A stretch of 64,000 nucleotides of DNA from Rhodospirillales bacterium (GTDB taxonomy: Bacteria > Pseudomonadota > Alphaproteobacteria > Bin95), in the NCBI GenBank assembly GCA_038143065.1, contig JAYQLI010000035.1, forward strand, positions 2,464,894 to 2,528,893. Reading direction: 5' to 3'. The translations under genes and the position numbers were made by a program. This document shows, piece after piece, positions 8,965 through 40,166 of the stretch; the stretch's first letter is position 1, and every line of letters starts with the position of its first letter. Under the pieces are notes generated by a model. That model did not search any database. It was not told where the DNA came from and saw only the letters and a list, made by a program, of their open reading frames with translations.

Positions 8965-9006
8965 TGAAGTTTCTATCGATAAACGTCGCTCGTGCGCTTA
9001 GAACTC

Positions 9007-9899
9007 TTATCTCGTTTTAGGTATTTGTACGCCAGCCATCTTTTCAAGGGTTGTTGTTAAGGCGGTCAAATCTTGGTCGCGCCCAACTTCTGCCATGCAC
9101 TGCAGGAATAGCGTGCGGATATTTGTGCCTAGCCACATAGGAGTTTCGTAGGCCTCTGCCTCTCTACGCCAAAGCTCAAGGTCTTTTTCAATGATATATA
9201 AGGCGCCACCGTAGTCGAAGGTTCTTGAAAGAACGTGATTTGGAATTTTGGTGTCGGTTGCACTATTTCGGCCTGATGACGCATTAATGACTTCCAACAT
9301 TTGCTCAGGATCTAAGCCCGCCTTTGCCCCTAAAGTCATTGCTTCCAGAGCCACTGATAGGTTTCCGAATGAAATAATATTATTAACCAATTTCATGGTC
9401 TGAGCGGCGCCGGGGTTTTCGTTTAGATAAACCAGTTTTCCCGACAGGACTTCTAAGCTGGATTTTAGAGCCTCAAAGTTTCTTTGTCACCAGAGCACAT
9501 AATGCCGAGTGTCCCTGCTTCTGCACCTGGGGGTCCCCCAGAAATAGGTGCATCGAGGAAAACTTTTCCAGCCGCCTTCATTTTTTCAGCAACTGCGCGC
9601 GAATAGGCGCTACCAGTTGTTCCCATGTTTATGAATGCTTTGGCGCGATTGCCTTTATCAGCACCGTCAACGCCCAGAGCCACACCCTCTGCTGCAGCAA
9701 GGGATGGAAGACAAGCCAGTACGTAGTCTGATTTGTCGGCTGTTTCCCTCGGTGAAGCGGCAACCTCGGCCCCACGTTGTGCTAATACTGCAGTTCTGTT
9801 TTCATCCGTATCGCAAACAACCAAATCATGGCCAGCTTCTATAAGATTGATGGCCATGGGGCGCCCCATTGCTCCAAGGCCAATATATCCAATGCGCAT
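9007..9899 (-). CDS. Beta-hydroxyacid (3-hydroxyisobutyrate-type) dehydrogenase, indel near 9475
   Basis: GLGAMG, DAPISGG, MKLVNN, KDL motifs across two ORFs. Confidence 0.88.
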
Positions 9900-9912
9900 A
9901 GGTCAGGCTCCT

Positions 9913-11132
9913 TTAGATAATTTTCTGATCGACAAAATTTTGAATTGCCTCTGCAGAATACCCAAGCTCTTCAAGAATGGCTTGGTTGTGTTCGCCCAAC
10001 TTAGGAGCTCGACCGAACGCAGGAGGTGTTTCTGAAAATTGCCATGGTGTACCGTGTACTTTTAGGGTTTCACCAATTTCTGGGTATTCCATTTCGGCAA
10101 TATAGCCATTGGCAATATTGTCTTCGTTGTTTGAAGCTTCCAGCAAGGTATTTACCGGTGCTGCGACGATATCTGCATTACGCAATGTTATTAGCATGTC
10201 GTCACGTCGGCCTTTCGAAAATAGGCCCCGTAAGGTTTCTAAAATCAGATCTTTCTTGTTTTCACCTACGAGGGCCAGTCCAAGATCACTTGCACCTCTT
10301 TGTTCAAGTGTGTCCCAGAAGCCAAGCGCATTCATGGCGGGCTGCCAGTCTTTTGCGTCTAGTTGCAAAACTAACGGCAGTCCATCGATATCATCAAATG
10401 TAGCCGCTATGCCTGGACGATTACGCGTGCCGTTAATTCTTGCGCCAGTTATAGGATTTTTGTTGCGCCACATAGTTGTGGTCAGTGTCCATCCCATCAA
10501 TCGGACAGCACTTCCTGCAAGTGATGTCTCCACTTTCTGACCAATGCCGGTTTCACGAGCATTGATGAGTGCAGCAAGTACACCCCAAAAGTGAGCATTG
10601 CGCAGGTTTCATCAGCTACTGACACAACGCCAGTCCGCATGGAACCACCTGGTTGGGAGTATGCTTCGGCAATCCCAGATAGGGCTTGTCCCACGGCGTC
10701 TGTCCCAGGAAGATTGGCGTGAGGACCGCGTGTGCCGTAAGCAGATACTGATGCATAAACAAGCTTAGGGTTAATCTTTTTTAAATCTTCATATCCAAAA
10801 CCGTTCCGTTCCGCTGCTCCAGGACGGAAATTCTGGCCGAAAATATCTGCTGTTTTGATAAGTCTATGAAGAATTTCCTGAGCCTCTGGTGTCTTCAGAT
10901 TTAGAGTTAGACTTTTCACGCCTCTATTATTGGTTTCAAAGAAAGATGAAATTTCACCATTCTCTCCTTTGATTTCACCGGCCTTTCTAGAGGGGTCCCC
11001 TCCATTGGGACTCTCAATTTTAATTACTTCCGCACCAAGGTCTGCCATCAGCATGTATGGGACTGTACCAGCCTGAGCAGTTGAGCAGGCAACTACACGG
11101 ATACCGTTTAAAGGGCCAAGTGATCCCGACAT
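9913..11132 (-). CDS. Family III CoA-transferase (CaiB/BaiF), indel near 10585
   Basis: ADLGAEVIKIE, NRGVKS, NFRPG, catalytic-Asp segment VAD, APKLGEHN. Confidence 0.9.
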
Positions 11133-11223
11133 TCCAGGACAATCCTTTCAATGCATAGAAGGGCTAGTTTTATTCAATAATGCAAAAAATAAGCGTCTTG
11201 TTTAGTGTAGAGCTTAAGCTCGA

Positions 11224-11633
11224 TTAATGTCCGTCTGGTAATTCTGCCAATTCAATTAAGATATTTCCTGTTGCTTTTGGGTCTATAAAGGCGATGCGGC
11301 TTCCTCCATGTCCCGATCTTGGTTCTTTATCCAGCAACGCCACACCTTTTTCTTTTAATTCAGCAAGTGCGCCATCGATATCCTCTACTTCAAAGCAAAG
11401 ATGAAAAAGGCTTTGCCCTTTTCGTTGATCCAATCTTGCACTTTTGAGGAAGGGCCAACCGCTTCTAGAAGCTCGATGGATGTCTCGCCAACTGGATACA
11501 TTGCTAGCCGTGTTTCACCAATTTGCTCATCATAATCTTTTTTGAGACCAAAGATGTGTTCTAAGGCTTGCCCCTCTTTTTCCATATCATTGACTGCTAT
11601 CGCAATGTGTTCAACACGCTTTATCTTCACCAT
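11224..11633 (-). CDS. Methylmalonyl-CoA epimerase-like VOC protein, indel near 11415
   Basis: HIAIAV, IELLE, HLCFEV, IAFIDPK..G.LIEL. Confidence 0.85.
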
Positions 11634-11793
11634 ACCCTCCCTCTATTTGTAATGCTGAAGGAAAGCATGGAGTTGGTCGAGTAGCCATATCGTAGCTGAA
11701 ATAAAAAATATTTCTGTAACCTACATATTTTGCAAATCATCAAAATGTTTGCGTGGCGATCCATTTATTGAAGCAGTCTGTAACTTTAGCTTT

Positions 11794-12179
11794 TTAAATT
11801 TTAGTCTCCGGTCGCCACATCAAAACACTGGCAAATTTACCAAACTTTAGAGCCCCAAAAATTAGAGACAGATAAAGAATTAATTGTGAACTTTCTCCAC
11901 CTATTGAGATGCAAACTGCAACAAGACCGCCAATTAGTGTGAGAGCAATAGCCAGGGTGCGTGGGCTTTCCTTAGTTGCCTCAAGTGGATAAGCCCAGTT
12001 TCGCCATCCCTCTACAAGTGCAACAGCAACTAATACAATAGCAGTTCGCAAATCGAACTCAAAAGCTTCCTTCGCGGCTCCAATCAAGCTCTTATCTAAA
12101 CTGACTACGATGAACCCGACGATAGGCGGAAGAAGAGACCATTTCAGAGGGCTCTAACGTCTGGACCGTGACGCTTCAT
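11794..12179 (-). CDS. Hypothetical small membrane protein (indel near 12150)
   Basis: Several hydrophobic segments; restoring one C links the ORF to an ATG overlapping the MaoC stop (TGATG). Confidence 0.55.
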
Positions 12180-13309
12180 CAAGTATTTCGGCTTGGCAAT
12201 TCCACCAAACCCGTTCCAATCACTGAGAGCTCATTATCTTGTTGGCGAGCTTCTTGTGAAATTTCAATGAGATGACGTCCTTTCTCAATACGTTTGTCTT
12301 TTACAGTCCCACGTATGACCAGGAGGTCTCCCTCGGGGTTGTGACGGCGAATTTTGCAGGACGCTTTTCGTAAAAACCCATGGTCTCCCATCCAATCAGT
12401 AAGGTGATGAGTTAACCATGAGCAGCGCTCTGGTCCGTAGTCATAAGCCCCGGGTGTTCCGACTTGTCGAGCGAATTCCTCTTCCCAATGTACACGTTCA
12501 GGGCAATCTGGAATGTTGAATTTATTTACGATTCCAAGACCAGGATGGGCATCTATTTGTTTCCATGCAATGCGATTGGCGCGAATGTAAAGGCCGCCCC
12601 ATCCCTGAGCGTACGCAATAAAACCAGTAACGGTCATAGGGCCTTTGGGCATTGTAGGTAATTCATCACCAACATTTACATCTTCCCAATATCTGGGCTC
12701 TGACCCACGAGGCTTTTCTGCTGCATAAAGATTGTAGAATTCTTCCAGCTCCTCCTTGGTGTACTGACGAACGCCTTTTTCGCGAACTTCGGTGTATTTA
12801 ACCCCGCGTTCTCTGGCTGCGTCTCGTTCTGTCCTAAAACACCAACTGTCAGCTTCAGCCAGTAGCTCATTTCGCTGATTATAGAAATCGACATGATAGA
12901 TTTGTTGGATAGCACGACCGGCAAACTTGGTATCGTGTGAAATAAGATCCTTGAGATGGGCTTCTGTTCTAATCTCATCATTTCTGCGTATTGGAGCGTG
13001 CCATGACCAGTCAGCTCCCGCCCACATAGCATGAACACCAGGGAGCCCGCCTACGTACCCCGATATAATTCTGCTTGTTGAGAATAGGAAACTGGGAAGC
13101 GCTGTTATTCCGCCAAAACGGCTTTTTTCAGCGTATTCAGGATTGCACCAAAGTGGATTGTCATCGCCAATTCCGTGAGCGTAGTGACGGATATTGTCTC
13201 GGGTTGCCTCATGGCACCATGGCTCTAAGGAGCCAACAATGGGCACGCCAATTCGCCGCTTAAGATCGTTTAAGCCATCATCGGTGATAACAGGGAAAAG
13301 ATCACTCAT
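12179..13309 (-). CDS. Double MaoC/FAS1-like hot-dog acyl-CoA (de)hydratase
   Basis: IRHYAHGIGDDNPLW, RYWEDV.VGD.LP, ERVHW; two hot-dog halves. Confidence 0.82.
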   Translation of the reverse strand: MSDLFPVITDDGLNDLKRRIGVPIVGSLEPWCHEATRDNIRHYAHGIGDDNPLWCNPEYAEKSRFGGITALPSFLFSTSRIISGYVGGLPGVHAMWAGADWSWHAPIRRNDEIRTEAHLKDLISHDTKFAGRAIQQIYHVDFYNQRNELLAEADSWCFRTERDAARERGVKYTEVREKGVRQYTKEELEEFYNLYAAEKPRGSEPRYWEDVNVGDELPTMPKGPMTVTGFIAYAQGWGGLYIRANRIAWKQIDAHPGLGIVNKFNIPDCPERVHWEEEFARQVGTPGAYDYGPERCSWLTHHLTDWMGDHGFLRKASCKIRRHNPEGDLLVIRGTVKDKRIEKGRHLIEISQEARQQDNELSVIGTGLVELPSRNT

Positions 13310-13312
13310 GTG

Positions 13313-14881
13313 TTATTTCTCTTCTGATTTCGAACGTTCTCGGTCTCTGAGAACCTTACGATTGACCTTGCCGGCCGGGGTTTTGGTAGCTCTTCAACAA
13401 ATTCAATGAGCCTCGGATATTCGTGCTGAGAGAGGCGCTCTCTGACCATATTTTGCACCTCATCCACAAGATCTAAGTTATTGCGTTTGGCAACCAGGAA
13501 AGCCTTTACTACATGCCCTCGTGTGGGATCGGGTACCCCAATACAAGCGGCTTCCAATACATCATCATGTCGAAGGATGGCATCTTCGATTTCAACAGCA
13601 CTCATAGTCCAGCCTGCTGAGATGATTACGTCGTCTGCTCGACCGCCATGGAAAAAATAACCATCATTATCCTTGCGACCAAGATCTTTAGTGGGAAACC
13701 ATTGGCCTCGCCTCTCCACAACTATCTCCCCAGTTTCGTTGGGGTTAGCTTCTGATCCATCTGGGCGATGAATACGGACATCCACACCTGGTGGTGGTTT
13801 GCCAAGAGAGCCAGGTTTCATCTCAAAATCAATTGCGCCAGGGTAGGAGACCAGTATCACTCCAACTTCCGTGGTGCCATACATGCTTCGAGGGCGTTGA
13901 TTAAGAGCAATCTCACAGAAATTTGCAGTCTCGCTATCGATAGGCTCGCCGGTGAAGGTGAGTTTTTCTAGCTTAAGGTTTTGAAGCTCCAGTTCCTCCG
14001 TATTCATCATTAGCCTGTAATGAGTTGCAGCGGCTGAGAGGTTTGTTGTGCCAAAGTCTTGCATGGCCTGAACAAGACGTTTCGGATCGAAACGGCCGGC
14101 GTAGGACATTGTCTCTACACCAAGAGCCAATGGCGCGAGAGTGCCATGCCATAATCCATGTCCCCAAGCGATGGACGAAGGGCAGCAAAAACGGTCACCA
14201 GGCCGAATGCCAGTGCCATATAATGCAGCAGACATTAAGGTTACTAAACTTCGATGCGTATGGCGGATTGCATCGGGTAGCTCACGAGTTGTGCCAGACG
14301 TATACTGAAAACAGGCAAGGTCATCTCCCTTAGTTTCCCATGAGAATTGACTTTGTTGAGCAGCCATTTGCTTTTCAAATTCAGGCCCGGTTACCCATAA
14401 CTTGAGATTTGAAAAGCCTTTCGCTATTGGCATTTTTTCAGAATTAGTGAGCAGAGCGGCTGGTTTGCAATCCTCAATCCGAAGCTTGAGGCCATCTTCC
14501 CCAAACAATGTGAATAGAGGGACTGCAATGCAGCCAGCTTTCATGCAACCAAAGAGGGCGACATAATAGGCTTCCTCTGGCTCTAACATGATAGCTACAC
14601 GCTCGCCCCGCCCGAATCCCTTCTGCTTTCAGAAGGTTTGCAAACTGATTAGAGCGCTCAGCCAATTGCTGAAATGTAAGGGTGTCATTGCGCCCATCAG
14701 CATGAACTATGCGAACGGCCACTCTTTCTGATGAAGTTGCATGTCTATCAACGCATTCATGAGCAATGTTGAAACAGTCTCTATTCCCGTCATACAGCTC
14801 CCATAGTCCTTCCGGTTTGAAATGCAGATGAGCATCGCTGTAGGTTGTGAAGTCCGTTAGCCTTACCAAGGACTGATCCAT
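13313..14881 (-). CDS. Acyl-CoA synthetase (medium-chain/acetate-CoA ligase family), indels near 14610 and 13380
   Basis: FNIAHECVDRH, YTSGTT, YGTTE, GRADD; LPKTPAGKV after repair. Confidence 0.88.
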
Positions 14882-14900
14882 TCTGCCTGTTGTCGTGAGA

Positions 14901-15398
14901 TTAGTTTCTATCTTTGGGTTGTTTGTTAGACAGGGATTCAAGGAGTACGTCTATCCTGCGGCTTTCCAGAACAACTATGCGTTCCTTGAATTTTAGCTCG
15001 GTGCCATCTTCTACCAAGCGATCAAGATATTTCCCCGCAAGGAAGAGGCTCATTTCTCCGTCTTGCATTGTTCGGATTACCTGAAAATTAGTTCGTCCTT
15101 TGATTTCGCCATTCTCTTCAGTGTAACGGGCTCGCGACAGGATGTGACAGTAGGTATGGGGCTCGAAGATATTAGCAGTACGAAGAGCTAATACTCGATC
15201 TCTCATCATGCCTGCGGTGTTGCAATAAAATATACCCATAGGTAAGCCAGCTTCGTGGTTTTCACGGGTTACAATTTTATAAATTGCATCCTCGGTGAAA
15301 TAGCCAGGCCACGCCTCGAGGTCGCCGTCATCAAGTGTATGAGTGTAGTCAGCCTGGAAGTCATCCAACCGCTCACGAAGATCGTCATCTATCACCAT
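14901..15398 (-). CDS. Aromatic ring-hydroxylating oxygenase beta subunit (TphA3/AndAd/NagH family); probable indel near 14940
   Basis: WPGYF, RENH..G, DRV.ALR.ANI; C-terminus becomes LLVIPV* if one T is restored. Confidence 0.9.
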   Translation of the reverse strand: MVIDDDLRERLDDFQADYTHTLDDGDLEAWPGYFTEDAIYKIVTRENHEAGLPMGIFYCNTAGMMRDRVLALRTANIFEPHTYCHILSRARYTEENGEIKGRTNFQVIRTMQDGEMSLFLAGKYLDRLVEDGTELKFKERIVVLESRRIDVLLESLSNKQPKDRN

Positions 15399-16655
15399 TA
15401 GAAGCCCATAATTCTGCGGTAACCTGTCCAGAAACCTCGTATGGCGGCCTCAGTCGCGCGAGAATTTTCGGAGCTTTCCGCATCTCGGCCACCATTTCCA
15501 TAAAGGCGCGTTTATCTTCCGAACCTCGAGCGCCGCGCTGAACAAAATTGTTAATGCAACCGTCCTCCATTGAAACAAGGCCAGAAGACCCAGTCAGGTT
15601 CACTTGCATAACACGTTTTTCAGTCTCTTCAGGAGTGTCATCTTCATAGCCAAGGTAGATCCAGAAAAGCTCTGTTTTATCTTGGCCGCGTGGCAAATAA
15701 TGCCGCACGCATAGTGAATTCAAGGTAAAGTGTATGCAGAGGTTTGGAAAAAACGCTTGAATAGAATGAGTGATGCCATCATCAAACTCATCCCAAGTAT
15801 CTAAGAGCTGAGGGCCCTCTAACTTATTTTCATATTGAGCAGAGTGGACTCCAGCGTTTTTATATTCTTCGTCTTCGTTGAAGGTTTTGCGTTTTGCATA
15901 AGAAATGTGATGCCACTTGTCTGGAGCAATGATAATGCCGCCATCCATATCAAGGCGGTTTACCTTAAAGGTTGTGTAAAATGTGTGGAGCAGCGTTGCA
16001 TGATAGGCATCGCGAAGATTCTCGGCGTACAACATCCAATTATTGTGGATGATTTGGCTCTGTACACCGAGAGGTTTAAGCTTCCGTCCAAGGTTTCGGC
16101 GGACAAAGTCCGCCATTGTTTTTCCAAGAAAATCCTCGACTGGTGGAGTTTCGTCGGAAAAAGTTCGAAAACCATTCCGCAGAAAACTTCCACCCTTACA
16201 GGTTGCAACCGATGCTGGTTCATGTCGAAGTCATCAGGCATGCCGCCCTTGCCACCGACGCCGTTTTTGAAGGCAAGGCCAATAAGTTTGCCGTCTAATC
16301 CATAATTCCAGGAATGATATACGCAGGTTAGTGCTTTGGCGTTACCACGTTCTTTTAAGCAAACCAGAGCGCCTTTGTGAGCGCATCTATTGACCATAGC
16401 ATTTACGGTGCCCGTGCGATCGCGGGTAACAATCACAGGAGTTTCACCGACAAAAGTTGTCTTGAAGTCCCCCGGCTCAGCTACATCGAATTCCATGCAA
16501 AGGAAATTCCAGACGGGCCCTTTGAAAATTTTCTCTTGTTCTAGTTTGTAGATTTCAGGATCGAAAAATAATCGGTAAGGAATCCGCGAGATGCCTTCCT
16601 TTGGCCAAATGAAGGGTTCGGACAACTCTTCTTGGTTTTGCTTGTTTGCTAACAT
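15398..16655 (-). CDS. Rieske ring-hydroxylating oxygenase alpha subunit, terephthalate/anthranilate/salicylate group (indels near 16165 and 15490)
   Basis: Rieske CAH..CVYH, ENLRDAYHATLLH iron ligands, SMED; repaired C-terminus GGRDAESSENSRATEAAIRGFW; TAATG overlap with the beta gene. Confidence 0.92.
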
Positions 16656-16657
16656 TT

Positions 16658-17580
16658 TCAATCCTCTAAACCGTCTCGAGGGCCAAGTTTAACGCCCGCC
16701 ATTTTTTCGTAAAGCGTGATAACGCTCGAACTATCCAATTTGCCCAGGCCATTTGCCTTTGCCATCTGAAAGATCTAGAGGCTAACATTAGCTAAGAACA
16801 TTGGCACCCCCAAATGCTTGGCAAAGTCTGTTTGAAGTGTTTGGTCTTTAATGGTTATGTCTATGGTGCCCCCTGGCCGAAAGTCGCCTTTGATAAATTG
16901 TGGTGCGCGCATTTCGAGTGCGGTGGATGCGCCTGTTGATACCCGCATCACTTCAAACATGGCCTGAGGGTCCAGGCCGGCCTTAGCACCCATCACGAAT
17001 GCTTCAGCAAGAGCTGCGGTTGTTGTCTGGATCATCATGTTGTTTACATGTTTCATGGCCAATCCTTGGCCAATTTCACCCATATGGAATATTCGTGATG
17101 AATAGGCTTCGATGATTGGTCGAACTTTCTCGAGGGTTTCAGCTTTTCCTCCAATAATTGCCGATAGATCGCCCTCATCAGCCCTTTTCCAGCCGCCAGA
17201 TACAGGAGCGTCTAGTATACCAACTCCTTTGTCCGCTAAAATTTTATCCCAGCTTTTTACAGCTGTGGGATCATTGTGGCTGATGAGATCACCACGTCTC
17301 CCTGACGGAGAGCTGGAAGAAATCCATTCTCACCCATGATAACTTCTTCAGACTGAGCGGTTGTCTCCACCATACAGATCAGTATTGCGGCCTTATCAGC
17401 TACTTCACGCGCGGAAAAAGCACGCCCGGCACCTTTTGAGACAATGTCATCTAATGCGGTTTTGTCTAAATCAAAAGCAATGACTGGATGACCTTTTTTT
17501 ATGATGTTTCCGGCCATTCCTCCACCCATGACGCCGACGCCAACAATGCCTATCGTTGATCCTCTATTCCCCTCAGCCAT
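16658..17580 (-). CDS. Beta-hydroxyacid dehydrogenase family protein (indel near 17265, in-frame TAG at 16775)
   Basis: GVGVMG, DAPVSGG, MKHVNN, KD motifs; family-like sequence continues past the TAG to TGA at 16658. Confidence 0.82.
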
Positions 17581-17796
17581 GCTTTTGTTCCTTTCAAGTC
17601 AGTCATCTGCATTTCAAAGAGAGAATGCCGAAATGCAAGCTTTGGTACTTTACGACGGGAATACTCCTGTCTAGGCTTTGAATCTTTCACACCCAACTGA
17701 CGTGTTTGGTTGGGTGGTTCGCTACAGGTACTGAAGAGAAAAGGGCGCGTCATAGACGCTACAGCCAGCAGCATAACAACTGAGGAGGAAACGCAT

Positions 17797-18954
17797 ATGC
17801 GTAAAGCAATGATCTCAATTGCAGTTTCTGCGGTTGCTGCTGCTGGAATAGCAGCAGGTGCTGTAGCTGCAGAAGTTAAACTGCCAAAAAATCTCTCGTG
17901 GACAGCCTATGGAACAACATCGTCCGGTTATGCCCAGTCAGTAGGACTGGGGAATATGTTGAAGGCAAAGTACGGCACTGAGGTTCGTATTATTCCTGGG
18001 AAAAACGATGTATCCCGTATGCTGCCTTTAAAGGCTGGTCAGGCTGAATTGTGCGCATGTGGTATTGCCGCTTACTTCAGTGGTGAAGGCGTTTTAATGT
18101 TTGCTGATGAAAAGTGGGGGCCGCAGCCATTGCGAAACCTTTTCAATAATAACGGTAGACATGGAACCGTTAGTGCGGCCATTGCTGATGACGTTGGTGT
18201 TAAGTCCTTACAAGACCTTAAAGGTAAGCGTGTCGCGTGGGTGAAAGGTTCGCCAGCTCTTCAAACAAACATGACTTCCATTCTCGCTTATGCGGGGCTT
18301 ACTTGGGACGAAGTCGTCAAAGTAGAGGTTCCAGGCTACGGCCAGTCCATGCAAGCCATTCTTGATGGCCAAGCTGATGTGGCCATGGGAAGCTCTATAT
18401 CTTCAATTTATAACCAGATTGCAGCTAGCCCCCGAGGCTTGTTTGTTCCTAACTTCCCGCACAGCGATAAGGAAGCGTGGGCAAGAATGAACAAAGTTGC
18501 ACCTTATGTCGCCAAAACTAAGGTGGAGCTTGCCATCAACGGTGAAAACAATCCTTCTGGAAAGCTTCCTTATGAAGGAGCTGGATATGCGTATCCAATT
18601 TTCGTTAGCTTGGCTCGAGTTAGTGATGATGTAGCCTATGGTTTAACCAAAGCCGTCATGGACAACTATGAGAGCTTTAAGGATGCTGGTCCTGGTATGG
18701 ACGGTTACAAGGTTGAAAATCAGAACTTCCAATGGGCTTTTCCATATCACACTGGCGCAATTCAGTACTACAAGGAGGCAGGAGTTTGGACTGCGGAAGA
18801 CCAAGCTCATACCGACATGTTGTTGAAGCGTGAATCAATCTTGGCTAATGCCTGGAAGAAAACTAAGAGCGAAGGTTTCAGTAGTGCTAAATGGCTTGCC
18901 AACCGTTCAGCTGCTCTGAAAGCAGCTGGAATGGATGCTCCATTCAGCGAATAA
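17797..18954 (+). CDS. TAXI-family TRAP transporter solute-binding subunit
   Basis: GAGGAGG RBS, signal peptide, DLKGKRV, PYHTGAIQYYKEAG. Confidence 0.92.
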   Translation: MRKAMISIAVSAVAAAGIAAGAVAAEVKLPKNLSWTAYGTTSSGYAQSVGLGNMLKAKYGTEVRIIPGKNDVSRMLPLKAGQAELCACGIAAYFSGEGVLMFADEKWGPQPLRNLFNNNGRHGTVSAAIADDVGVKSLQDLKGKRVAWVKGSPALQTNMTSILAYAGLTWDEVVKVEVPGYGQSMQAILDGQADVAMGSSISSIYNQIAASPRGLFVPNFPHSDKEAWARMNKVAPYVAKTKVELAINGENNPSGKLPYEGAGYAYPIFVSLARVSDDVAYGLTKAVMDNYESFKDAGPGMDGYKVENQNFQWAFPYHTGAIQYYKEAGVWTAEDQAHTDMLLKRESILANAWKKTKSEGFSSAKWLANRSAALKAAGMDAPFSE

Positions 18955-18991
18955 ACATAATCTTTGGCCTCAAGGTCTTAGATGCAAGTGG

Positions 18992-19025
18992 ATCGGGCGC
19001 AGTTTTCTGCGCCCGATTTGCTTTG
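18992..19025 (+). terminator. Hairpin terminator/stabiliser after the TAXI gene
   Basis: Perfect 11-bp stem ATCGGGCGCAG-TTTT-CTGCGCCCGAT followed by T-rich tail. Confidence 0.7.
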
Positions 19026-19241
19026 TAGGTTCATCATTGGTCCAAGCACTTTTCTAAAATCTGTCAAATTGATGTTTCTAAGCTTTACGGTGCTTAAGAA
19101 CACCAATACGATTTCTCAAATAAAAAATGTAGGACGAGGAGTTTTCCGGAGCAAATCGCCTGCGAATAAAAAAGCGTCGTCAAAGACTGGTGTTAAGCCG
19201 GCACATTTATTTAAAGCGCTATACACACGGGGAAGAGTCTT

Positions 19242-21283
19242 ATGAACGCGAATAATCAACCAGATCAAGCTATTACCGCCGAAGAAGCCGTAGAGCAGTC
19301 AGAGGTTAATGTTAGCCGCCATCGTCAGCTTTCAAAGTTTTGGTGGACCTGGCTTTTAATCGCATCCATTGGTTCAGTCCTTGTATCGATTTATGTGATT
19401 TTTGGTCTCGGAAATCGATTGGGAGCCTACGTTCCTCTAGAGACCGAGTATTTTTATGTAATGCTTGGCATGTTGTTGCCGCTTGTCTTTTGCTGTTTCC
19501 ATTCAAGTCGTTGGCGCCTGGGTCGGTAGAGTCAGGGAATGTGCCTTGGTATGATATTTTGTTGGCGGCTATTACAATTGCTTTGTCCGTCTATTTTGTT
19601 CTGCACGGCGAAGAAATTTTACAAGATGGTTGGGAGTATTTGCCTCCGGATACGGCAGAGTACTGCGCCTATGCGATGTGGTTGATCGTGTTGGAAGCAA
19701 CAAGGCGAACGGGTGGTACAGCTATCTTTGTCATCTGCCTGATATTTTCTGTTTATCCCGTATTCGCAGATGTAATGCCTGGTGTTTTGCAGGGCCAGCC
19801 AACAAGTTGGACTATCACGTCGGCTTTTTACATTTATGGCACAGAAGGCGTTCTTGGTATTCCTATGCGGGCTTTTGCCAATCTTGTGGTTGGTTTCCTC
19901 GTCTTTGGCGTTGCATTGCAATATACCGGTGGAGGGGCTTTTTTCCTCAATCTAGCATTTGCATTGTTGGGTAAATTTCGAGGCGGTCCTGCAAAAGTTG
20001 CAATCTTTTCTTCAGGTCTCATGGGTTCCATGTCGGGGTCCGTTATCACAAACGTCCTAACTACGGGTGTTATGACAATTCCGGCGATGAAAAGGGTTGG
20101 TTTTCGCTCGACCTATGCCGGAGGTGTCGAAGCCTGTGCATCAACAGGTGGTGTTCTCATGCCTCCAGTGATGGGTGCAACAGCATTCGTGATGGCGACG
20201 TTCTTAGAAGTCTCTTACGCAGAAATTGTGATCGCAGCGGTATTTCCTTCTCTGCTCTATTACTTCGGCCTTTTCATGCAGATTGATGCTTATTCGGCTC
20301 GCTACGGTCTTAAGGGTTTGCCTGTGGTTGAGCTTCCAAAAATTATGGATGTGCTTAAGACCGGATGGTACTTCATATTTGTTTTGGCAATGCTGGTGGT
20401 GATGCTTCTATACATGCTGCGTGAGGCGCAGGCACCTTATTACGCCACTGTGACGCTTTTAATTATTAATCAGCTATCACGGCACCATCGTTGGAACATA
20501 GCGCGTCTTATGGATTTCTTGATGGGTGTGGGCAAACTTTTTACAGAGCTGGCAGGCCTTTTGGCAGGTGTTGGACTCATTATTGGTGCTCTGATGCTCT
20601 CTGGAAAAATTGGCAGCCTAGCGTTCGACTTGGTTCAATTGGCGGGAGAAAATATATTCTTACTGCTCATAATGGGAGCAGTAACTAGCTTTATACTTGG
20701 CATAGGTATGACAGTGACAGCTGCTTATTTGTTCCTCGCAGTCACTGTCGGTCCTGCTCTCATCCAAGGTGGCTTGGATAAAATAGCCGTGCACCTTTTC
20801 CTTCTATACTGGGGAATGATTTCATTCATCACGCCGCCAGTTGCAATAGGCGCTTTCGCGGCGGCGACTGTGGCGCAGTCCAATCCAATGAAAACTGGTC
20901 TGGAGGCCATGCGGCTTGGCAGTATTATCTATTTTGTTCCCTTTTTCTTCGTTCTCAATCCTGCCTTGATAGGTAGAGGTGAACCAATGGAAGTTTTGGT
21001 GACATTTGGTGCGGCTGTTATTGGTGTCATTTTAGTGGCGGCCGCTCTCCAGGGCTACCTTGTTGGCGTGGGTCGGTTAGGAGCTGCTGATAATCCAGTG
21101 AGTTGGATTTGTCGCTTATTATTAATGGCGGCTGGAGTACTTATGATGATGCCTGGTGGCGATCTTGTGGGTGTTGAACATGCTACCCTTAACGTGATTG
21201 CTGCTGTTCTAGCTGTGGTCTCCGTGATCTTAGCTCGTCTTTTCCGTCGTCGACAATTGGCGGGTGGCATGCAAGAGGAGTAG
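19242..21283 (+). CDS. TRAP transporter fused 4TM/12TM permease (indel near 19490)
   Basis: GGPAKVA, GVEACASTGG.LMPPVMGA, ITPPVA motifs. Confidence 0.92.
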
Positions 21284-21287
21284 CTAA

Positions 21288-22142
21288 GTGGTTGGCGAAG
21301 TTTGGCGCATCGGCGACATAAAAATTAGTCGGATCGTCGAGATTGAAGCGACGGGTGGAATGACGCGTATAATTCCAGATGCTACCCGTGAGCGAGTGAT
21401 GGGTATTCGTTGGCTTTATCCAAATTTTGCTGACGAAGATGGGCGGATGCGTGGTGCTATTCACGCTCTTCTGGTTGAAACACCAGACATGAGCATCCTT
21501 GTTGATACGTGTATTGGTAACGACAAAGATAGAACTGTCCCTGCTTGGAATCATCTGCAAACAGATTTTCTTGATGATTTGAAAACTGCTGGGAAGGCCC
21601 GTGAGGAGATTGATCGGGTTCTTTGCACGCACTTGCACACGGATCATGTTGGTTGGAATACGATGTGGACGGGGTCGGAATGGGTCCCAACATTTCCAAA
21701 CGCACGATATCTCTACGGCGCAAAAGAATTTAGGTTCTGGCAAGAATCTGCTGAGGATGGTCAGGCTCAGGTTATGCAGGATAGCGTGTTACCCGTTTGG
21801 AATGCCGGTTTAGTCGATCTTGTGGAACAAGACGAAAAAATCTGTCCAGAGATAACTCTGATCCCGTCTCCTGGCCATACTCCAGGGCACGTGAGTGTAT
21901 TAATTGAAAGTGAGGGGCAAAGCGCTCTTATCACAGGAGATTTTCTGCATCATCCTGTGCAGATGGCTCATCCAGAATGGTCTAGTTCACCGGATGTAGA
22001 TCGCCCTCAGGCCATTCAAACTAGGAAGATCATGTATAACCGCTTTGCAGATGGCCCGACCCTCATAATAGGGACCCATTTTGCTACCCCTACAGCGGGT
22101 TACATCAAGAAAGATGGTGATGCCTGGCGATTAGAGGTTTAA
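21288..22142 (+). CDS. MBL-fold metallo-hydrolase
   Basis: THLHTDHVG, GHTPGH, GD..H, final H. Confidence 0.9.
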   Translation: MVGEVWRIGDIKISRIVEIEATGGMTRIIPDATRERVMGIRWLYPNFADEDGRMRGAIHALLVETPDMSILVDTCIGNDKDRTVPAWNHLQTDFLDDLKTAGKAREEIDRVLCTHLHTDHVGWNTMWTGSEWVPTFPNARYLYGAKEFRFWQESAEDGQAQVMQDSVLPVWNAGLVDLVEQDEKICPEITLIPSPGHTPGHVSVLIESEGQSALITGDFLHHPVQMAHPEWSSSPDVDRPQAIQTRKIMYNRFADGPTLIIGTHFATPTAGYIKKDGDAWRLEV

Positions 22143-23375
22143 ATTGTTATCCCTGATTTGATCCAGCACTGGTATCAAGTATTCACGAAATAAGTCTGGG
22201 TTCTCTGACATTGGGAAATGGCCCATGCCGCGCATTACTTCAAAATGTGCTGCTCCAATGAGGTCTGCAACTTCCTTTCCCATCTCTGGTGTAGCAGACG
22301 GATCATACTCACCAGAGAGTAGATAGATCGGGCAAGATGAGGTCGCGTAATGGTTCGGCAAGGCCGTTTCGAAGGTCGCCATCTCTGAAATAATACTGTA
22401 CGTCGCCGTGGAAGATGCCAGGTCCACTTTGCATATAGTGCCACATCGTTTCCCATCGTTCGGAGGCTGGCGATTGAGGCGCGATCATTCCTGCCATTGA
22501 TGCGCCTGATAGCATCCCTCCATGAATATCAGGACGGTGCAGAGCTCGTTCTGGTGGGGTAGGACCTAAGCTAATGTCCTCGGCATACAGTGCAGACTGT
22601 AGGCCTATTGCAGCTCTAAACTTTTCGCTGTGGCGTAAGGCAAGGTGAAGTACAACACGCCCGCCAATGGAACATCCCATAACAATTGGTTTGTCTAGCT
22701 TCATCGCTTTAACAAAAGCCATTATTACTGCCACATAGCTGTCCGTGGTGAGTTCGTATACCTCGTTCTGAAAACCAACCGGTGGGGAAGACTTTCCGTG
22801 CCATGGCAAGTCAAAAGCTATTACACGATGGCGACTAGTTATTACTGGATCGTTTAAAATATGGCGAAATTGCCGTCCATCACTACCAGCCGTATGCAAA
22901 CAAAGTAGAGGGTGCCCAGAACCGGCTTCTTCAAAGTACACGCGGTGAGGAATTCCTTGAATGTCCAAACGAAGATAACGTCCTGTTACGGGTTCTAGGC
23001 CTGCTTGTGCAGGTCTGGGTTCCTGTGCGCCTGCATCGAGCCGGGAAAATAACATCTCCAGCAGCAGCATTTGCTGAAAAAAAAGACCAACATCACCTCC
23101 GACGGTCATATGCTGTCTACGACGCATCGTTGATAGTGTTTGGAAACCTGGTCCAGGTTCATCAGATAGAAAGGCAGCCCAAGTGTCTCTGTCGGCGATC
23201 AGGGAAAAGTTTGTTTTTTCAAGTGGAGGTACCTGGGATAGCTGTAGCTGTCCATTTTTTACTTTGACATAGGTTGTGTCTTCATCAGCTAAGACTGAAA
23301 AGAGAAAGACGAAAGGGATAATAAAAGTTGGATGTGGGGATTTGCTCTTGCTTTTTCTTCTAAGTACGCAAACAC
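22131..23375 (-). CDS. Alpha/beta hydrolase with N-terminal SCP2-like domain (indels near 23297 and 22340)
   Basis: LHTAG, GCSIGG nucleophile elbow, GEYD, GHF; likely GTG start at 23375 after AGGAGG. Confidence 0.82.
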
Positions 23376-23555
23376 GACTTCCAACCTCCTGCAGTGGAAG
23401 ACGAATAATAAACGTCTGTGCTTCTTCTGTCTCCGGTGATTTGAGGGAGGTGGGCATATAGCGCGATTTAGACCCAAGTTGTTTTTGGAGATCTAAATTT
23501 AAATTGGAACAAAGAATATCGAATAGGTGTCACTAAAAATAGCGGGTTATTTTAT

Positions 23556-31680: not shown

Positions 31681-32520
31681 TTAAGAAATGAATTCTAATA
31701 TCAGGCCGCAGGCATTGTTGCGATTAACCCTGAGAGCGGAGCCGATACTGGTATAGGAAATTTTAGCCTGTTTTAAATATTTTTCTGTTTCTCCCAGGTC
31801 ATTAACGCCAATAGAAAGAACATGCCAGATTGGTCTTTCCATTGCGGGGTGTGCATCCAAATCGTTATGCGCCATGTTAATATTTTCATCGGTAGCTAAG
31901 CGAATAAAACCCCTGCCAGTATCAAGCTCAGCTCCAAATTCGGTTTCCTTTATTGATGCTGTGCCAAAAAGCTTAGACAATGCTTGTGCTGTTGCTGCAG
32001 GGTCGCTTACAAGGCCAGTGATACCAGCAAAGCGAATTGCGCCATTTGGGTGATCTATGAGGCGTGCATTACGCATTAGTTCTGGGGTTTTATGCCCACA
32101 AATAAAAATTGGCATGCCAGCAAGATCTTCTGGTTCCAGAAAAAGATTTCTAAACCTAACTATCCCATCAGGTTCTTTAGATGGTCTAGCAAGGTCAGTT
32201 GGTCCTTCAGTTCTAACACCCAAAGCTTCAATTTTTGTTTTAACTGCATCTGCGTCTGAGGTTCCAAGAGCAAGTCTATGTAGGCCTTCCCCTCTGGATT
32301 TTAGTTTCTGCTGTAGGCCCCCGTCTGGGTACTCTGGTTGATTGATTCCTAAGAGCTCCAGGTATGTATCTTGAAACATCAGGCAGTAGTTTGCTGTCGC
32401 ACGGTTTACATGATCACCTAGCGGCGCCGCCGTGAAGCCTAATTTCTCATAGATCCCGCGAGCTTTTTCCAAGTCATGGACAGCAATAATGCAATGATCT
32501 AGGCCTATAACTGGGTTCAT
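31681..32520 (-). CDS. VOC/glyoxalase-like protein
   Basis: LDHCIIAVHDL, LGF, TAN, YLEL, HPNGA. Confidence 0.85.
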   Translation of the reverse strand: MNPVIGLDHCIIAVHDLEKARGIYEKLGFTAAPLGDHVNRATANYCLMFQDTYLELLGINQPEYPDGGLQQKLKSRGEGLHRLALGTSDADAVKTKIEALGVRTEGPTDLARPSKEPDGIVRFRNLFLEPEDLAGMPIFICGHKTPELMRNARLIDHPNGAIRFAGITGLVSDPAATAQALSKLFGTASIKETEFGAELDTGRGFIRLATDENINMAHNDLDAHPAMERPIWHVLSIGVNDLGETEKYLKQAKISYTSIGSALRVNRNNACGLILEFIS

Positions 32521-32533
32521 ATACGGTCTCCGA

Positions 32534-34651
32534 TCATTCCTTCAAAATGGTTTCCATCACTCGCTCTCGGGTAAGAGGCATATCAATGATTGGTTCGCCA
32601 AGTGCGTGCGCGACGGCATTCAATATGGCCGCTGCCGTAGGCCCAACAGTGCACTCGCCAACGCCAAGGGCTATGTCGTTTGGACGAGAAATTAGCTCTA
32701 AATTGATCTCTGGTACATCTGAGAAACGCAAAATTGGATAACTATCCCAATCAGTAGAAACTATTCCAGCTCCCTCGATCTTTACTTCCTCTTTCAAGGC
32801 CCAACTTGCTCCTTGGACACATCCCCTTCAAGTTGGTTCAATATACCATCAGGATTGATAGCCAGGCCGGCATCAGCGACAGCCCAAATTTGTTCGAGAC
32901 GGATCTCTTCTTCTACTGTGACGGCAACAGCAACACCTGCCATTGCGGCAATGTTTTTGTAGCGAGAATAGGCAATCCCTAGGCCTTTTCCTGTGCCGCT
33001 TGCACCTCTTTTAGACCAATCACACAGCTCTGATGTTCTCTGCAGCACTGAGCGAGCTCGATCATCATCGAGGAGAGATAGGCGGTATTCCACGGGATCT
33101 TTTCCTGCTTCCAGAGCAGCAAGATCCATCATACGTTCAATGGCGCAGACGTTGGGTAGCGCTCAAGGCCTCTCAGTGCGGAAGTGCGCACCGCTGGCTC
33201 ACGGATTAAATGATGGTGGATATGTGTTTGTCCCACCTTATATGCGGGGAACGCATTTCGTGGCCCGCCATATCCTCGTTCGGGTGGTGGATCAGCTGGG
33301 TCACCCTCTGGTGCTACAGCGCCAAGAGATTTAGCTCCAAGCATGACAACGCCGGGCGCGCCCGGCCTCTGGACATGAACTGGACTCCAGATGTTAGTTG
33401 TCCAATCTGTTGGATTTCCGTTAGCATCCAAGATAGTCTCAATATCAACTTGCATTGCAGGGCCAACCGGCTCAAACGCAAATTCTTCGTCGCGCTTCCA
33501 TTGCATGCGGATCCAGGTGTTAGGAATTTCAAGAGCTACGATAGCTGCATCAAGCGCTGCATCATCCGCTCCATTATGTCCGTAGCAGCCTGGACCGTCA
33601 GCATGACGAGCATGAATAGAATTCTCGTCAATACTCAGTGCTAGAGCCAAATTTCTGCGAAGAGGGTGCATCCCTTGGCCATGAGACCATATATCTAATT
33701 TTTTATTTTCCCAGCGCGCTAAAGCCACGGAGGGGCCAAGAGAAGCATGAGCAACATATGGCCTTGTAACAGTAACTTTTAACTTTTTACCGGGAGTTGA
33801 AGCAGCAGTTACTTGGTCACCATAAAAATTTTTAACGGCGTCTTGTCCTGGTAGGTTACGGGCATCTGCTGCGCCTTTGGAGATATTGCTTACACCACTC
33901 CATACTGCATGCTGGTAAGCAGCCCGTGCTGCTTTTTCAGCAAGCCATTCTTCATCTGCAATTAAGGCTATGAAATTGCCTTTACGAAGGATTTGAATGT
34001 CACCACCAGCTGCACGCTTAATAGCCTCTTCGTCTAAGTATGATAACTGAGCTTCAGGAGAAGGCTGTCTAAGCATGCGGGCATGCAACAAATTTTTTTC
34101 TGAGATGTCGTGAATAAAACCACTGCCCATTACCTTTTTACCAAGGTCATCACGAGGCGTATTTTTTCCTACAATCTTGTACGAGCTCGTTGTTTTATGG
34201 GGAAAACAAGCCGTTGCTTTGCGTTCCCAATCAATTTCATCTGCTACGTCCCAATAGTCGACACCAGTCACTTCCTGGTTTTTTAAAAATTCACCATTTG
34301 AAATTTCTAAATCTTCCGGGGCACAATTAAGTCTCAAGGCGGCCCGCTCCGTTAGTAGGGCTCTTGCTTCTGAAGTTACAGCTCTGATTGCAGCACCGGA
34401 AGCCATGATGGAAAGACTAGAGGTCGTATAATTTTCATCAGGCCCAATCTCTGTATCGCCTGATGCCAAAGACAATTTAGATAGGTCTATGTCTAATTCT
34501 TCAGCCGCTATTTGCCGAAGGGCAGTTACAATCCCTGTCCAATTTCAACTTTACCTGAAGCAACACGCACGGTTTTGTTTGGTAGAAAGGCAATCCAGCG
34601 GTTGAGCGATGGATTTGCTGCTAGGCTTGCAGGTAATTTTGGCAGACTCAT
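32534..34651 (-). CDS. Molybdopterin-binding hydroxylase large subunit (NicB/IorB-like), indels near 34535, 33160, 32820
   Basis: GKVEIGQG, GCYGHNGADD, RTSALRGL, NQLEGG, GVGE....P; ATGA overlap with the Fe-S gene. Confidence 0.88.
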
Positions 34652-35118
34652 GACATTAATTCCGCGGCACGCTGTATGGCGCGAATAATCCTATTATGGA
34701 CACCACATCTGCAAAGATGTTTATCAAGAGCCTCTACAATCTCAGCACGGGTTGGATGACTGTTTTTCGAGAGAAGCGACTTTGCCGTTATTATCATGCC
34801 TGATAGGCAATAGCCGCATTGGCCAGCTTGCGCCTCCACGAACGCCTGTTGAATAGGGTGAAGGCCATCAACGCTAGCTAGGCCTTCTACTGTTTCAACT
34901 GACTTGCCAGCTACCGATTGGGTCAACAATGTACAAGAGTACTGTTCGACCCCATCAACAAGCACCATGCAGCACCCGCACTGCTCAAGGCCACAGCCAT
35001 ATCGCACACTTTTGGCATTACAATCATTTCGGAGGGCGTAGATTAAGGGGCGATCTGGATCAGTTACTTCGACTTCTTTCCCGTTGAGTGTAAAGCAAAC
35101 GTTATCCAATGCATTCAC
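34648..35118 (-). CDS. (2Fe-2S)-binding small subunit (NicA/CoxS-like)
   Basis: GCGLEQCGCC..C and QCGYC..LCRC. Confidence 0.93.
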   Translation of the reverse strand: MNALDNVCFTLNGKEVEVTDPDRPLIYALRNDCNAKSVRYGCGLEQCGCCMVLVDGVEQYSCTLLTQSVAGKSVETVEGLASVDGLHPIQQAFVEAQAGQCGYCLSGMIITAKSLLSKNSHPTRAEIVEALDKHLCRCGVHNRIIRAIQRAAELMS

Positions 35119-36224
35119 TCCGCGGCCTCAGGTAAATTTACTGGGGAAGGCATCTTGGTTGGATTGATTTCAGCTAATGGCTTTCCAAAGTGCTTTTCAA
35201 TCATAGGAACAACTTTGGTCTGAAATTGGGTCATGCTGCTCATTACATCCTTACTCGGCACATCACCTACGGCAAAGTAAATATTCATATGGCTGGGTCG
35301 ATATAATTGGATTTCATCGCAAAGACGCTCTGCAACTTCTTCAGCGCTTCCCGCCACAAGATTACGGCCAATTTCATCGATTGAGGGTTCGTCAGGAAAA
35401 GCTTCTTCCTCCACCATGTAATCGTCAACCATATGCTCTCGTCTATGCCTAAGTGACTGAGCCAGACGGCGCTGAAAACGAGCTCCGTCTATGTACCGTT
35501 CGATCGTAGCCTTATTGTCGGATACGCAAACAAAACGAAGTACGCCAAGAGGTGTTTCCGCTGGGTCTTTGCCTTCTTCTAAAAAACAAGCATCAACTTG
35601 ATCTCGCATTTTTTTGATAGAAGCAGCACTTCCTACCCCGCCAGAGATAAAGGGAATAAATCCGTCTCGGGCACATCGTCTATGGCTGTTTGGATCAGCT
35701 CCTGCAATCCATATTGGTGGGCGAGGGGTCTGTGCAGATCGCACGTTTATTGCTGTATCAGGTATATTAAATTCACTGCCACTGTAGCGGAAAGTTGGCT
35801 GGCGTAAGCCTCGATCTACAATGTCCAGCATTTCATGGAACATTTCCTTATTTTTAGAAATATCCGCATTCAAACGCTCGAATTCATAATGTTGATATCC
35901 GCTGCCTACCCCAACATCGAGCCGTCCGCCTGACAAGGCATCAACTTGGGCTATTTCCGCAATTAAACGAGCTGGTGTATGCAAGGGAAGAATAAGAACG
36001 GCGCAACCTACTCGAACCCTTTGTGTTATAGCTGCAGCATGGGTGCAGAAAATTAGAGGTGAGGGACAAAGGCTGTAGTTGGAGAAATGGTGTTCGGCAA
36101 ACCAGACTCGTGAATAGCCGAGATCCTCAGCTAGTCTGACATGGTCCATCGCTTCATTAATTACTTGGTGAGGTGATATGGACCGATCACGATGCTGTAG
36201 AAGATTGAAAACACCAAAGTCCAT
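35115..36224 (-). CDS. LLM-class flavin-dependent oxidoreductase
   Basis: WFAEHHF, D.LSGGRL..G.G.G, PPIW. Confidence 0.9.
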   Translation of the reverse strand: MDFGVFNLLQHRDRSISPHQVINEAMDHVRLAEDLGYSRVWFAEHHFSNYSLCPSPLIFCTHAAAITQRVRVGCAVLILPLHTPARLIAEIAQVDALSGGRLDVGVGSGYQHYEFERLNADISKNKEMFHEMLDIVDRGLRQPTFRYSGSEFNIPDTAINVRSAQTPRPPIWIAGADPNSHRRCARDGFIPFISGGVGSAASIKKMRDQVDACFLEEGKDPAETPLGVLRFVCVSDNKATIERYIDGARFQRRLAQSLRHRREHMVDDYMVEEEAFPDEPSIDEIGRNLVAGSAEEVAERLCDEIQLYRPSHMNIYFAVGDVPSKDVMSSMTQFQTKVVPMIEKHFGKPLAEINPTKMPSPVNLPEAAE

Positions 36225-36303
36225 TGAGTATCTCCCTAAAAATTAAGCAAGCTTAACCAATGAAAGATAGATGTCTGACGATTGGTTGGGCGTAGTGTAA
36301 AAG

Positions 36304-37509: not shown

Positions 37510-37532
37510 TTTTAAGGCCTCCATTTTAGTGG

Positions 37533-39151: not shown

Positions 39152-39325
39152 ACTCTTTTCCTTTATCTACTTGGAAAAGTTAAAGGGCTTTTAAGCTGGT
39201 CGTCTAGTCTTAACGCTAGTTTAAGGAGCTTATCTTGCGGTGTAGAAAGAATTGGCAAATTGGTTTTTTTAGTTCCTGAAGAAGACTTAACAGCTTTTAG
39301 GCGTAATCATTTCATCGCACTGCAG

Positions 39326-40162: not shown

Positions 40163-40166
40163 ATTC

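Follow-up and report, generated by a model that had tools for sequence, protein, structure and literature searches.

What is an aromatic-ring oxygenase doing in one operon with a coenzyme A (CoA) ligase and a MaoC-type hydratase? The question is raised by a locus in a 64,000-nucleotide stretch of DNA from a Rhodospirillales bacterium (GenBank assembly GCA_038143065.1, contig JAYQLI010000035.1, positions 2,464,894 to 2,528,893 of the forward strand), which at its full length is called the window below. An earlier note on this DNA had proposed, for window positions 11794..23375, a hybrid route combining a Rieske oxygenase with CoA-thioester chemistry, a dihydrodiol dehydrogenase of non-homologous fold and TAXI uptake, possibly fed by ester hydrolases. 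The reading we tentatively favour is that of a catabolic cluster of an estuarine/marine alphaproteobacterium in which a dehydrogenase and the two oxygenase subunits act on a para-dicarboxylate-type acid imported by a TAXI-TRAP transporter, with a ligase–MaoC pair recruited to the operon.

Pfam and NCBIfam scans of the open reading frames (ORFs) of the window gave a family match for 16 of the 18 ORF pieces scanned, the exceptions being a 97-residue membrane ORF and a 95-residue piece of the permease; ORFs of high-GC loci were chosen with a GC3 filter (GC content at third codon positions). On the minus strand runs a set of genes for a β-hydroxyacid dehydrogenase of the 3-hydroxyisobutyrate dehydrogenase (HIBADH) type (DH1, 16670..17580), directly upstream of the Rieske oxygenase α subunit (15398..16661, Rieske and Ring_hydroxyl_A domains), the oxygenase β subunit (14925..15398, PF00866), an AMP-forming acyl-CoA ligase of the short/medium-chain type (13310..14881), a 376-residue double hot-dog protein resembling (R)-hydratases and dehydratases (MaoC2, 12179..13309, intact) and a small hydrophobic protein. 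Divergent from it, on the plus strand, lie genes for a TAXI-family TRAP solute-binding protein (SBP), a fused TRAP permease and a metallo-β-lactamase (MBL)-fold protein, followed by a convergent α/β hydrolase. From DH1 to MaoC2 the genes are separated by 3–43 bases, with stops and starts overlapping, and such tight packing makes co-transcription of DH1–α–β–ligase–MaoC2 likely. All of the gene families that the earlier note had named for this run are therefore present and the region is real, although the run reaches further left than had been described, to 9007, with genes for a VOC protein, a family III CoA-transferase and a second dehydrogenase (DH2), and the breaks that disrupt many of these genes had been overlooked.

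The best solved relatives of α are a 413-residue TphA2-like chain (7VJU, E 5e-124), TphA2 itself (7Q04, E 7e-123) and NagG (E 8e-85), with an identity to TphA2 of ~44% by a manual count (177 identical residues in 402 aligned columns). Among NCBIfam models, AndAc scores highest for α (444 bits against a cut-off of 750) and AndAd for β (163 against 230), so that neither subunit reaches the equivalog cut-offs (NF041684/NF041685) of AndAcAd. By sequence, α belongs to the TphA2/AndAc/NagG clade. PMC9060491 describes how terephthalate dioxygenase (TPADO) holds its substrate: the iron ligands are H210, H215 and D356, the reacting carboxylate is clamped by R309, a residue shared throughout the aryl-carboxylate clade, N224, S243 and R390 grip the second carboxylate and are particular to TPADO among five characterised homologues, and I290 stacks on the ring. 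We mapped these residues onto α by hand from the alignment, with an offset of +9 and then +10 past one gap, which places the iron ligands at H219, H224 and D365 and the contacts R309, N224, S243, R390 and I290 at R318, N233, S252, R400 and I299. All five published TPADO substrate contacts, including both carboxylate clamps, are therefore kept. Conservation was assessed over 81 sequences, the reference and the α subunits of 80 reference-genome loci (66–100% identity), these being the best 80 of the 224 reference-genome stretches that encode relatives of α. N233, S252, R318 and R400 are found in 81/81, I299 in 75 (V in the other 6), and the Rieske and iron ligands C91, H93, C111, H114, H219, H224 and D365 are likewise invariant. 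With both clamps retained, the substrate of α is more likely to be a free acid that is anionic at both ends, probably of the aromatic dicarboxylate type, than a CoA thioester.

The family to which α belongs is abundant, with 6,642 proteins at E 1e-30, and more than 120 clusters from marine and soil metagenomes are at least 67% identical to α. The family keeps the terephthalate-recognition motif, yet it is no verified orthologue of TphA2, nor do tph genes accompany it. If the family does act on terephthalate-type acids, surveys of marine plastic-monomer degradation undercount the capacity; if the substrate of α–β is a different one, the ‘TPA motif’ has no diagnostic value, which matters for database mining.

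DH1 is the partner most closely tied to the oxygenase. Among solved structures, DH1 is closest to 2-(hydroxymethyl)glutarate dehydrogenase (E 1e-55), and its family also takes in 3-hydroxyisobutyrate, tartronate-semialdehyde and decarboxylating 6-phosphogluconate dehydrogenases. DH1–α–β is the constant unit of the operon, found with gaps of a few bases in all ten genomes of the window's genus, which bears out the earlier suggestion of a non-homologous dehydrogenase coupled to the oxygenase. Because one hydroxyl of the expected cis-diol lies β to a carboxylate, and DH1 is of a β-hydroxyacid family, oxidation of that hydroxyl by DH1 is plausible. On the chemistry and the gene coupling, DH1 is plausibly a chemically sensible, non-homologous stand-in for TphB; a diol dehydrogenase of HIBADH fold would, if confirmed, be a new way of carrying out the TphB step. 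Our literature search found nothing tying a 3-hydroxyisobutyrate-dehydrogenase-type enzyme to a dihydrodiol dehydrogenase role with a Rieske oxygenase, and the neighbourhoods of DH1 orthologues in two other families were uninformative.

The order of all five core genes is kept in part. Ligase and MaoC2 stand directly behind β in eight of the ten genomes of the genus (65–88% protein identity), while G004 and G007 keep DH1–α–β and hold the ligase–MaoC2 pair, at lower identity, on another contig. What follows the operon also varies: VOC–CoA-transferase–DH2 only in G000, the window's own genome, and G008, and a GDPD gene in G001, G002, G003 and G006. Among the 80 reference-genome loci of α, β comes next in 77, the remaining three being contig ends or a frame break; an orthologue of DH1 precedes α in only seven, and ligase and MaoC2 lie behind in only five, with one more locus cut inside the ligase, all of the latter in the window's genus. 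We also surveyed 150 genomes of other families, one per family throughout the class. MaoC2 orthologues (69–74% identity) occur in four of these, with a 48% relative in a fifth, and in all four a ligase orthologue (57–61%) directly adjoins MaoC2 as a stand-alone pair; an α orthologue of at least 60% identity was found in 0/150, the best match being 49%. The pair stands alone elsewhere and sister genera carry α–β without it, so the ‘five-gene core’, for which the earlier note had asked that gene order be compared among relatives, consists of two modules. It is thus a one-time fusion, in one genus, of DH1–α–β with a free-standing ligase–MaoC2 pair, which is a pre-existing, widespread module that joined the operon in most species of the genus.

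The chemistry of the recruited pair can be outlined from its relatives. The ligase resembles ACS, ACSM and 4-hydroxybutyrate-CoA ligases. MaoC2 carries PF13452 and PF01575 on its N-terminal half; a profile search links each half weakly to MaoC, PhaJ and HadB chains (best E 8e-4), a single-sequence search of the PDB gave one match (E 0.001), and the ESM Atlas holds only unnamed ‘FAS1-like dehydratase’ clusters. An invariant D268...H274 is present in the C-terminal half; the N-terminal half has W54 at what we take to be the position of the His in the Asp...His hydratase motif, the spacing being one residue off that of the motif. An AlphaFold model built from a 13-sequence alignment was too poor (mean pLDDT 53) and was not used. 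In the stand-alone loci the pair has as neighbours an IclR regulator (2/4 loci), proteins of the phosphoenolpyruvate mutase/isocitrate lyase type (2/4) and, at one locus each, an HpcH aldolase, a dicarboxylate symporter and a CoA-transferase. Of the operon's proteins MaoC2 is the best conserved, at 83–85% identity across the genus where the ligase has 65–66%, and at 69–74% across families; metagenomes hold many copies that are 98–100% identical.

Uptake of the substrate by the divergent transporter is plausible. The SBP (17710..18954) scores 167 bits against the cut-off of 84 of TIGR02122, its solved relatives being only distant (E 2e-12). The fused DctQ-DctM permease (19242..21283, PF06808) scores 571 bits with TIGR02123, for which the cut-off is about 320, and is encoded beside the SBP, which identifies the two as a TAXI-TRAP system. 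Within the genus the system is divergent from DH1 in G000 and G005 only (2/10); it lies 13–20 kb off on the same contig in G001, G003 and G006, where in G003 TAXI–permease–MBL forms a trio of its own, is not beside DH1 in G004, G007 and G009, and in G002 and G008 the contig ends there. A second, independent adjacency comes from another genus (G019, L128:8724-15143), in which genes for a TAXI SBP (50% identity), a permease (67%), a DHDPS-family protein, α and β run head to tail on one strand. TAXI-TRAP genes also sit in the o-phthalate operon of Pseudomonas sp. PTH10, as opaL/opaN (PMC6362003). The two independent adjacencies, together with this precedent, make TAXI uptake of the oxygenase substrate plausible, as had been suggested earlier. 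The DHDPS-family (pyruvate aldolase/dehydratase-type) set of G019 is a third, different set of partners of the same oxygenase. The transporter family is expanded in the lineage: one member of the genus has a second locus with a TAXI–TAXI–permease arrangement (L117, G005:C179), and in sister genera two or three TAXI SBP genes adjoin the orthologous permease.

Most of these genes are broken in the window. DH1 (indel at 17272 and a TAG at 16775-16777), α (breaks at 15491 and 16166), the ligase (13380 and 14606), the CoA-transferase (indel at 10582), DH2 (9474), the permease (in two frames) and the hydrolase (splits at 22341 and 23297) lie in at least two pieces each, the VOC gene is truncated (11418), the membrane gene has lost its N-terminus (12153) and the C-terminus of β is disturbed (14921 and 14938), so that at least 9 of 13 genes are split overall. 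A decaying cluster of pseudogenes would account for more than nine genes being out of frame or truncated, yet the same places are intact elsewhere. The relative G008 (= L009) is 93.0% identical over window 11704-16657 with seven gaps of one base each, and all of its genes are open: α (419 residues, the contig starting two codons in), β (156), ligase (522), MaoC2 (376), membrane protein (129), VOC (135) and CoA-transferase (406). Near-identical DNA is present in 20 public runs of seven studies of estuary and marine metagenomes, and we compared contigs from four of these metagenome runs, of four studies, with window 9000-23500. One-base corrections common to 4/4 runs fall at 9474, 10582, 11418, 12153, 13380, 14606, 14938, 15491, 17272 (an extra A after this position), 22341 and 23297; another, at 17615, is found in three runs, the fourth being without cover there, so that at least 12 places are corrected. 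The shared corrections and the open genes of the relative indicate that the breaks arose in assembly; natural populations carry an intact cluster, and we reject pseudogene decay as scarcely credible. The in-frame TAG of DH1 is a base substitution rather than an indel, either an assembly substitution error or a real strain variant, as position 16777 is G in 4/4 runs where the window has A, which turns the codon into CAG. A frameshift-ridden long-contig assembly can thus be rescued with public metagenome contigs.

In our proposed pathway the TAXI-TRAP system would, to judge from its two independent adjacencies, probably import the acid. The most likely substrate for dioxygenation by α–β is a free aromatic acid of the para-dicarboxylate type, which may be terephthalate or a natural look-alike. 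As the cluster has no reductase, the oxygenase must borrow one, and would be supplied with electrons by an enzyme encoded outside the cluster; in PMC7666164, tphA1 is likewise reported missing from a marine tph cluster. DH1 would then oxidise the C2 hydroxyl of the cis-diol, itself a β-hydroxy acid, to a β-keto acid, which would lose CO2 and re-aromatise, the job of TphB thus being done by an unrelated fold. Ligase and MaoC2 may make a CoA thioester and hydrate or dehydrate an enoyl-CoA, and might so handle the product or a companion acid, the least supported step of the scheme.

A number of observations weigh against this proposal. Identity of α to TphA2 is below the ~60% (60.2%) that verified marine TphA2 proteins share with Comamonas TphA2 in PMC7666164, and so below orthology-level similarity. 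Family scans of 9007-23457 found no reductase, ferredoxin, ring-cleavage dioxygenase or regulator, in agreement with the earlier note. Six-frame family searches of the genome (97.6% complete, contamination estimate 5.5%) gave only two FNR-type matches, both more than 1.2 Mb away, and genome-wide no matches to LigB, intradiol dioxygenase or PaaA/BoxB, VOC- and cupin-type ring-cleavage enzymes lying outside these searches, so that a protocatechuate-type product would be left without a known cleavage enzyme of the LigB, intradiol or PaaA/BoxB families. The same searches found a homogentisate dioxygenase, four other Ring_hydroxyl_A loci and PdxA-family matches elsewhere in the genome, none of the last within 9007-23457. 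No orthologue of the ligase, MaoC or DH1 lies beside α in 71 of the 80 loci, the coupled HIBADH cluster being confined to eight loci of the window's genus and one of Bradyrhizobium, and in two sister genera (six loci) α–β stands without DH1, ligase and MaoC2 within ~9 kb in 6/6. The ligase–MaoC2 pair, for its part, occurs without α at 4/4 of its other-family loci, and the enzymes other than the oxygenase look like those of short-chain aliphatic-acid metabolism.

Several of these points would also fit two functionally unrelated modules, our main rival explanation, which we regard as possible though rather unlikely. DH1–α–β would then hydroxylate some aromatic acid, while ligase–MaoC2 with VOC, CoA-transferase and DH2 would serve ordinary metabolism of short-chain or dicarboxylic acids of the acrylate/3-hydroxypropionate/C4–C5 type, the shared operon being a matter of descent in one genus. 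The stand-alone pairs of other families, the lack of α orthologues in that survey, the separate contigs in G004 and G007, the restriction of VOC–CoA-transferase–DH2 to G000 and G008 and the ACS/ACSM/4-hydroxybutyrate likeness of the ligase all favour such independence; the short gaps and overlapping stops and starts, which indicate one transcript, and the retention of the arrangement in 8/10 species at only 65–88% protein identity speak for a joint function. Tighter integration, close to the hybrid route of the earlier note, would have the Rieske enzyme dearomatise a TAXI-TRAP-imported aromatic dicarboxylate to a cis-dihydrodiol, the ligase thioesterify the remaining conjugated carboxylate, MaoC2 hydrate the dienoyl-CoA, the HIBADH-fold diol dehydrogenase oxidise the hydroxyl and the ring be opened hydrolytically without a ring-cleaving dioxygenase, in an aerobic analogue of the lower benzoyl-CoA pathway. 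The missing LigB, intradiol and PaaA/BoxB families, the packing of oxygenase, ligase, hydratase and dehydrogenase into one operon and the hydrolases, CoA-transferase and epimerase-like gene next door in the window's species would suit such a scheme. We nevertheless consider it improbable, since the ligase–MaoC2 pair serves genomes in which the search found no α orthologue, HIBADH-type enzymes are known to act on free acids, not thioesters, and ring cleavage by enzymes of the VOC or cupin types could still occur from elsewhere in the genome. What stands of the hybrid idea is the gene order in eight of ten genomes and a precedent for oxygenase/CoA combinations in the ipf genes (PMC9195938), whereas the invariant carboxylate clamp favours a free acid.

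A non-aromatic substrate appears more improbable still. Every partner save the oxygenase is an aliphatic-acid-type enzyme, there are few aromatic-ring genes in the genome, and other contexts of the α family hold Cys/Met-PLP (pyridoxal phosphate), methyltransferase or rhodanese genes rather than aromatic genes, so that α–β could be imagined to hydroxylate an aliphatic acid with two negative charges, either a dicarboxylate or a carboxy-sulfonate about as long as terephthalate, with DH1 oxidising the new hydroxyl and ligase and MaoC2 continuing by CoA chemistry. Against it, the residue that stacks on the ring in TPADO (I290) is kept, and every characterised enzyme of the clade has an aryl carboxylate as its substrate, as described in PMC9060491.

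The cluster, on our preferred reading of a dicarboxylate-degrading operon, is a variant of the aryl-carboxylate Rieske systems, with TPADO-like contacts, a non-homologous dehydrogenase, TAXI-TRAP in place of the tripartite tricarboxylate transporter (TTT) and a recruited CoA module. With TPADO (TphA2A3 of Comamonas; 7Q04-7Q06; PMC9060491) it shares an α/β Rieske enzyme of the same clade, the Fe and Rieske ligands, the five contacts and a coupled dehydrogenase gene; it differs in its ~44% identity and in a dehydrogenase of the HIBADH rather than PdxA type, and of the tph gene set the TphA1 reductase, the IclR regulator and the Bug/TTT (TphC) binding protein are absent from 9007-23457. AndAcAd and NagGH are of the same clade, AndAc and AndAd giving the best NCBIfam models and NagG the third-best solved structure; unlike α, they lack the second-carboxylate residues according to PMC9060491, and no AndAa/AndAb-type partners lie nearby. 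The opa operon of Pseudomonas sp. PTH10 (PMC6362003) likewise joins a TAXI SBP and fused permease to an α/β Rieske enzyme for an aromatic dicarboxylate and is regulator-free, but also encodes a ferredoxin, a reductase, a classical diol dehydrogenase and meta-cleavage enzymes, all absent from the cluster here. To PhaJ, HadAB and ChsH1/H2 MaoC2 is linked by the weak matches of both halves and the invariant Asp...His of the C-terminal half, and is set apart by having no close solved or named relative and by the Trp that presumably replaces the motif His in the N-terminal half. The oxygenase of the ibuprofen pathway reportedly acts on a CoA thioester. That pathway, ipfABDEF(GHI) of Sphingomonadaceae, also combines a CoA ligase and a two-subunit Rieske enzyme in one cluster, but a thiolase-like/DUF35 pair removes the side chain (PMC9195938), whereas here a double MaoC follows and the carboxylate clamp of α fits a free acid; there is no thiolase/DUF35 in the operon, the only such pair of the window lying 14 kb away at 37533-39151. 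Literature on Rieske oxygenases with a CoA ligase and MaoC, which centres on steroids, and on salicylyl-CoA with Rieske oxygenases did not describe this operon in the parts seen; the sequence similarity network (SSN) files of PMC9060491 may place the family.

Elsewhere the oxygenase keeps other company. In a marine α/β subclass (L022-L026, L028, L029, L032, L033, L036, L039, L043, L052, L053, L056 and L065, with α at ~10001) the gene directly upstream codes in 14 loci for a Cys/Met-PLP enzyme fused to NifU; downstream, 12 loci have a UbiE-type methyltransferase and 8 an RNase-Z-like MBL protein, and on the opposite strand hydantoinase B occurs in 14 loci and hydantoinase A in 11. In Bradyrhizobium, Methylocella, Terripilifer and Burkholderiales (L044, L051, L054, L057-L059, L062, L064, L069-L072 and others) the order is LysR – α – β – small rhodanese, and these loci carry at least one TctC (Bug) binding protein, an arrangement like that of tph clusters, though lacking TphB and a reductase. 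The rhodanese, Cys/Met-PLP–NifU and MBL neighbours raised the idea of a sulfur compound, which we rejected: the MBL protein is RNase-Z-like, not persulfide-dioxygenase-like, and there is no link to the window.

Of the genes to the right of the transporter, the MBL-fold hydrolase (21288..22142, plus strand, PF00753) is weakly lactonase-like, the AidB model giving 87 bits, under its cut-off of 360. The convergent α/β-fold hydrolase (22131..23457, minus strand) has an N-terminal extension and an intact 413-residue orthologue (L118:4929-6170); it had been described as an SCP2-hydrolase, of which the hydrolase fold and the orientation hold, and the SCP2 head stays below threshold even in the intact orthologue (E 0.009, 16.8 bits against a cut-off of 21.3). 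Since it adjoins the MBL gene in only two of the ten genomes of the genus (G000 and G005), the suggestion that ester hydrolases feed the pathway has little behind it, and the link of the MBL and α/β hydrolases to the cluster is weak.

To the left, on the minus strand, the small hydrophobic protein (11794..12186), whose start in the relative overlaps the MaoC stop, matched no Pfam or NCBIfam family. Beyond it come a single-domain VOC protein resembling methylmalonyl-CoA epimerase (11227..11633, coordinates by tblastn), whose intact orthologue falls just under the cut-off of TIGR03081 (methylmalonyl-CoA epimerase; 112.9 bits against 114.95), the family III CoA-transferase (9913..11132, PF02515 on both pieces) and the second HIBADH-type β-hydroxyacid dehydrogenase, DH2 (9007..9899, Pfam NAD_binding_2 and NAD_binding_11 on two pieces). 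The intact DH2 orthologue in L009 (297 residues) scores 197 bits with the tartronate-semialdehyde reductase model, under the cut-off. Housekeeping genes flank the region: rnpA, yidC and a methyltransferase gene to the left, a cytochrome c gene and metF to the right.

The homogentisate dioxygenase of the genome gave two matches of equal score on small contigs (G000 C44:2700-3155 and C46:36324-36779) and a broken third on C23, repeats that may represent duplicated or contaminant contigs. Within the window, positions 31681-40189 form a second catabolic-looking block, with a two-domain VOC protein, pieces of a molybdenum hydroxylase large subunit and its 2Fe-2S subunit, an LLM-class oxidoreductase, an Amidohydro_2 protein, a DUF35/thiolase-like (lipid-transfer-type) pair and an α/β hydrolase; overlaps between ORFs on the same strand suggest further assembly indels there.

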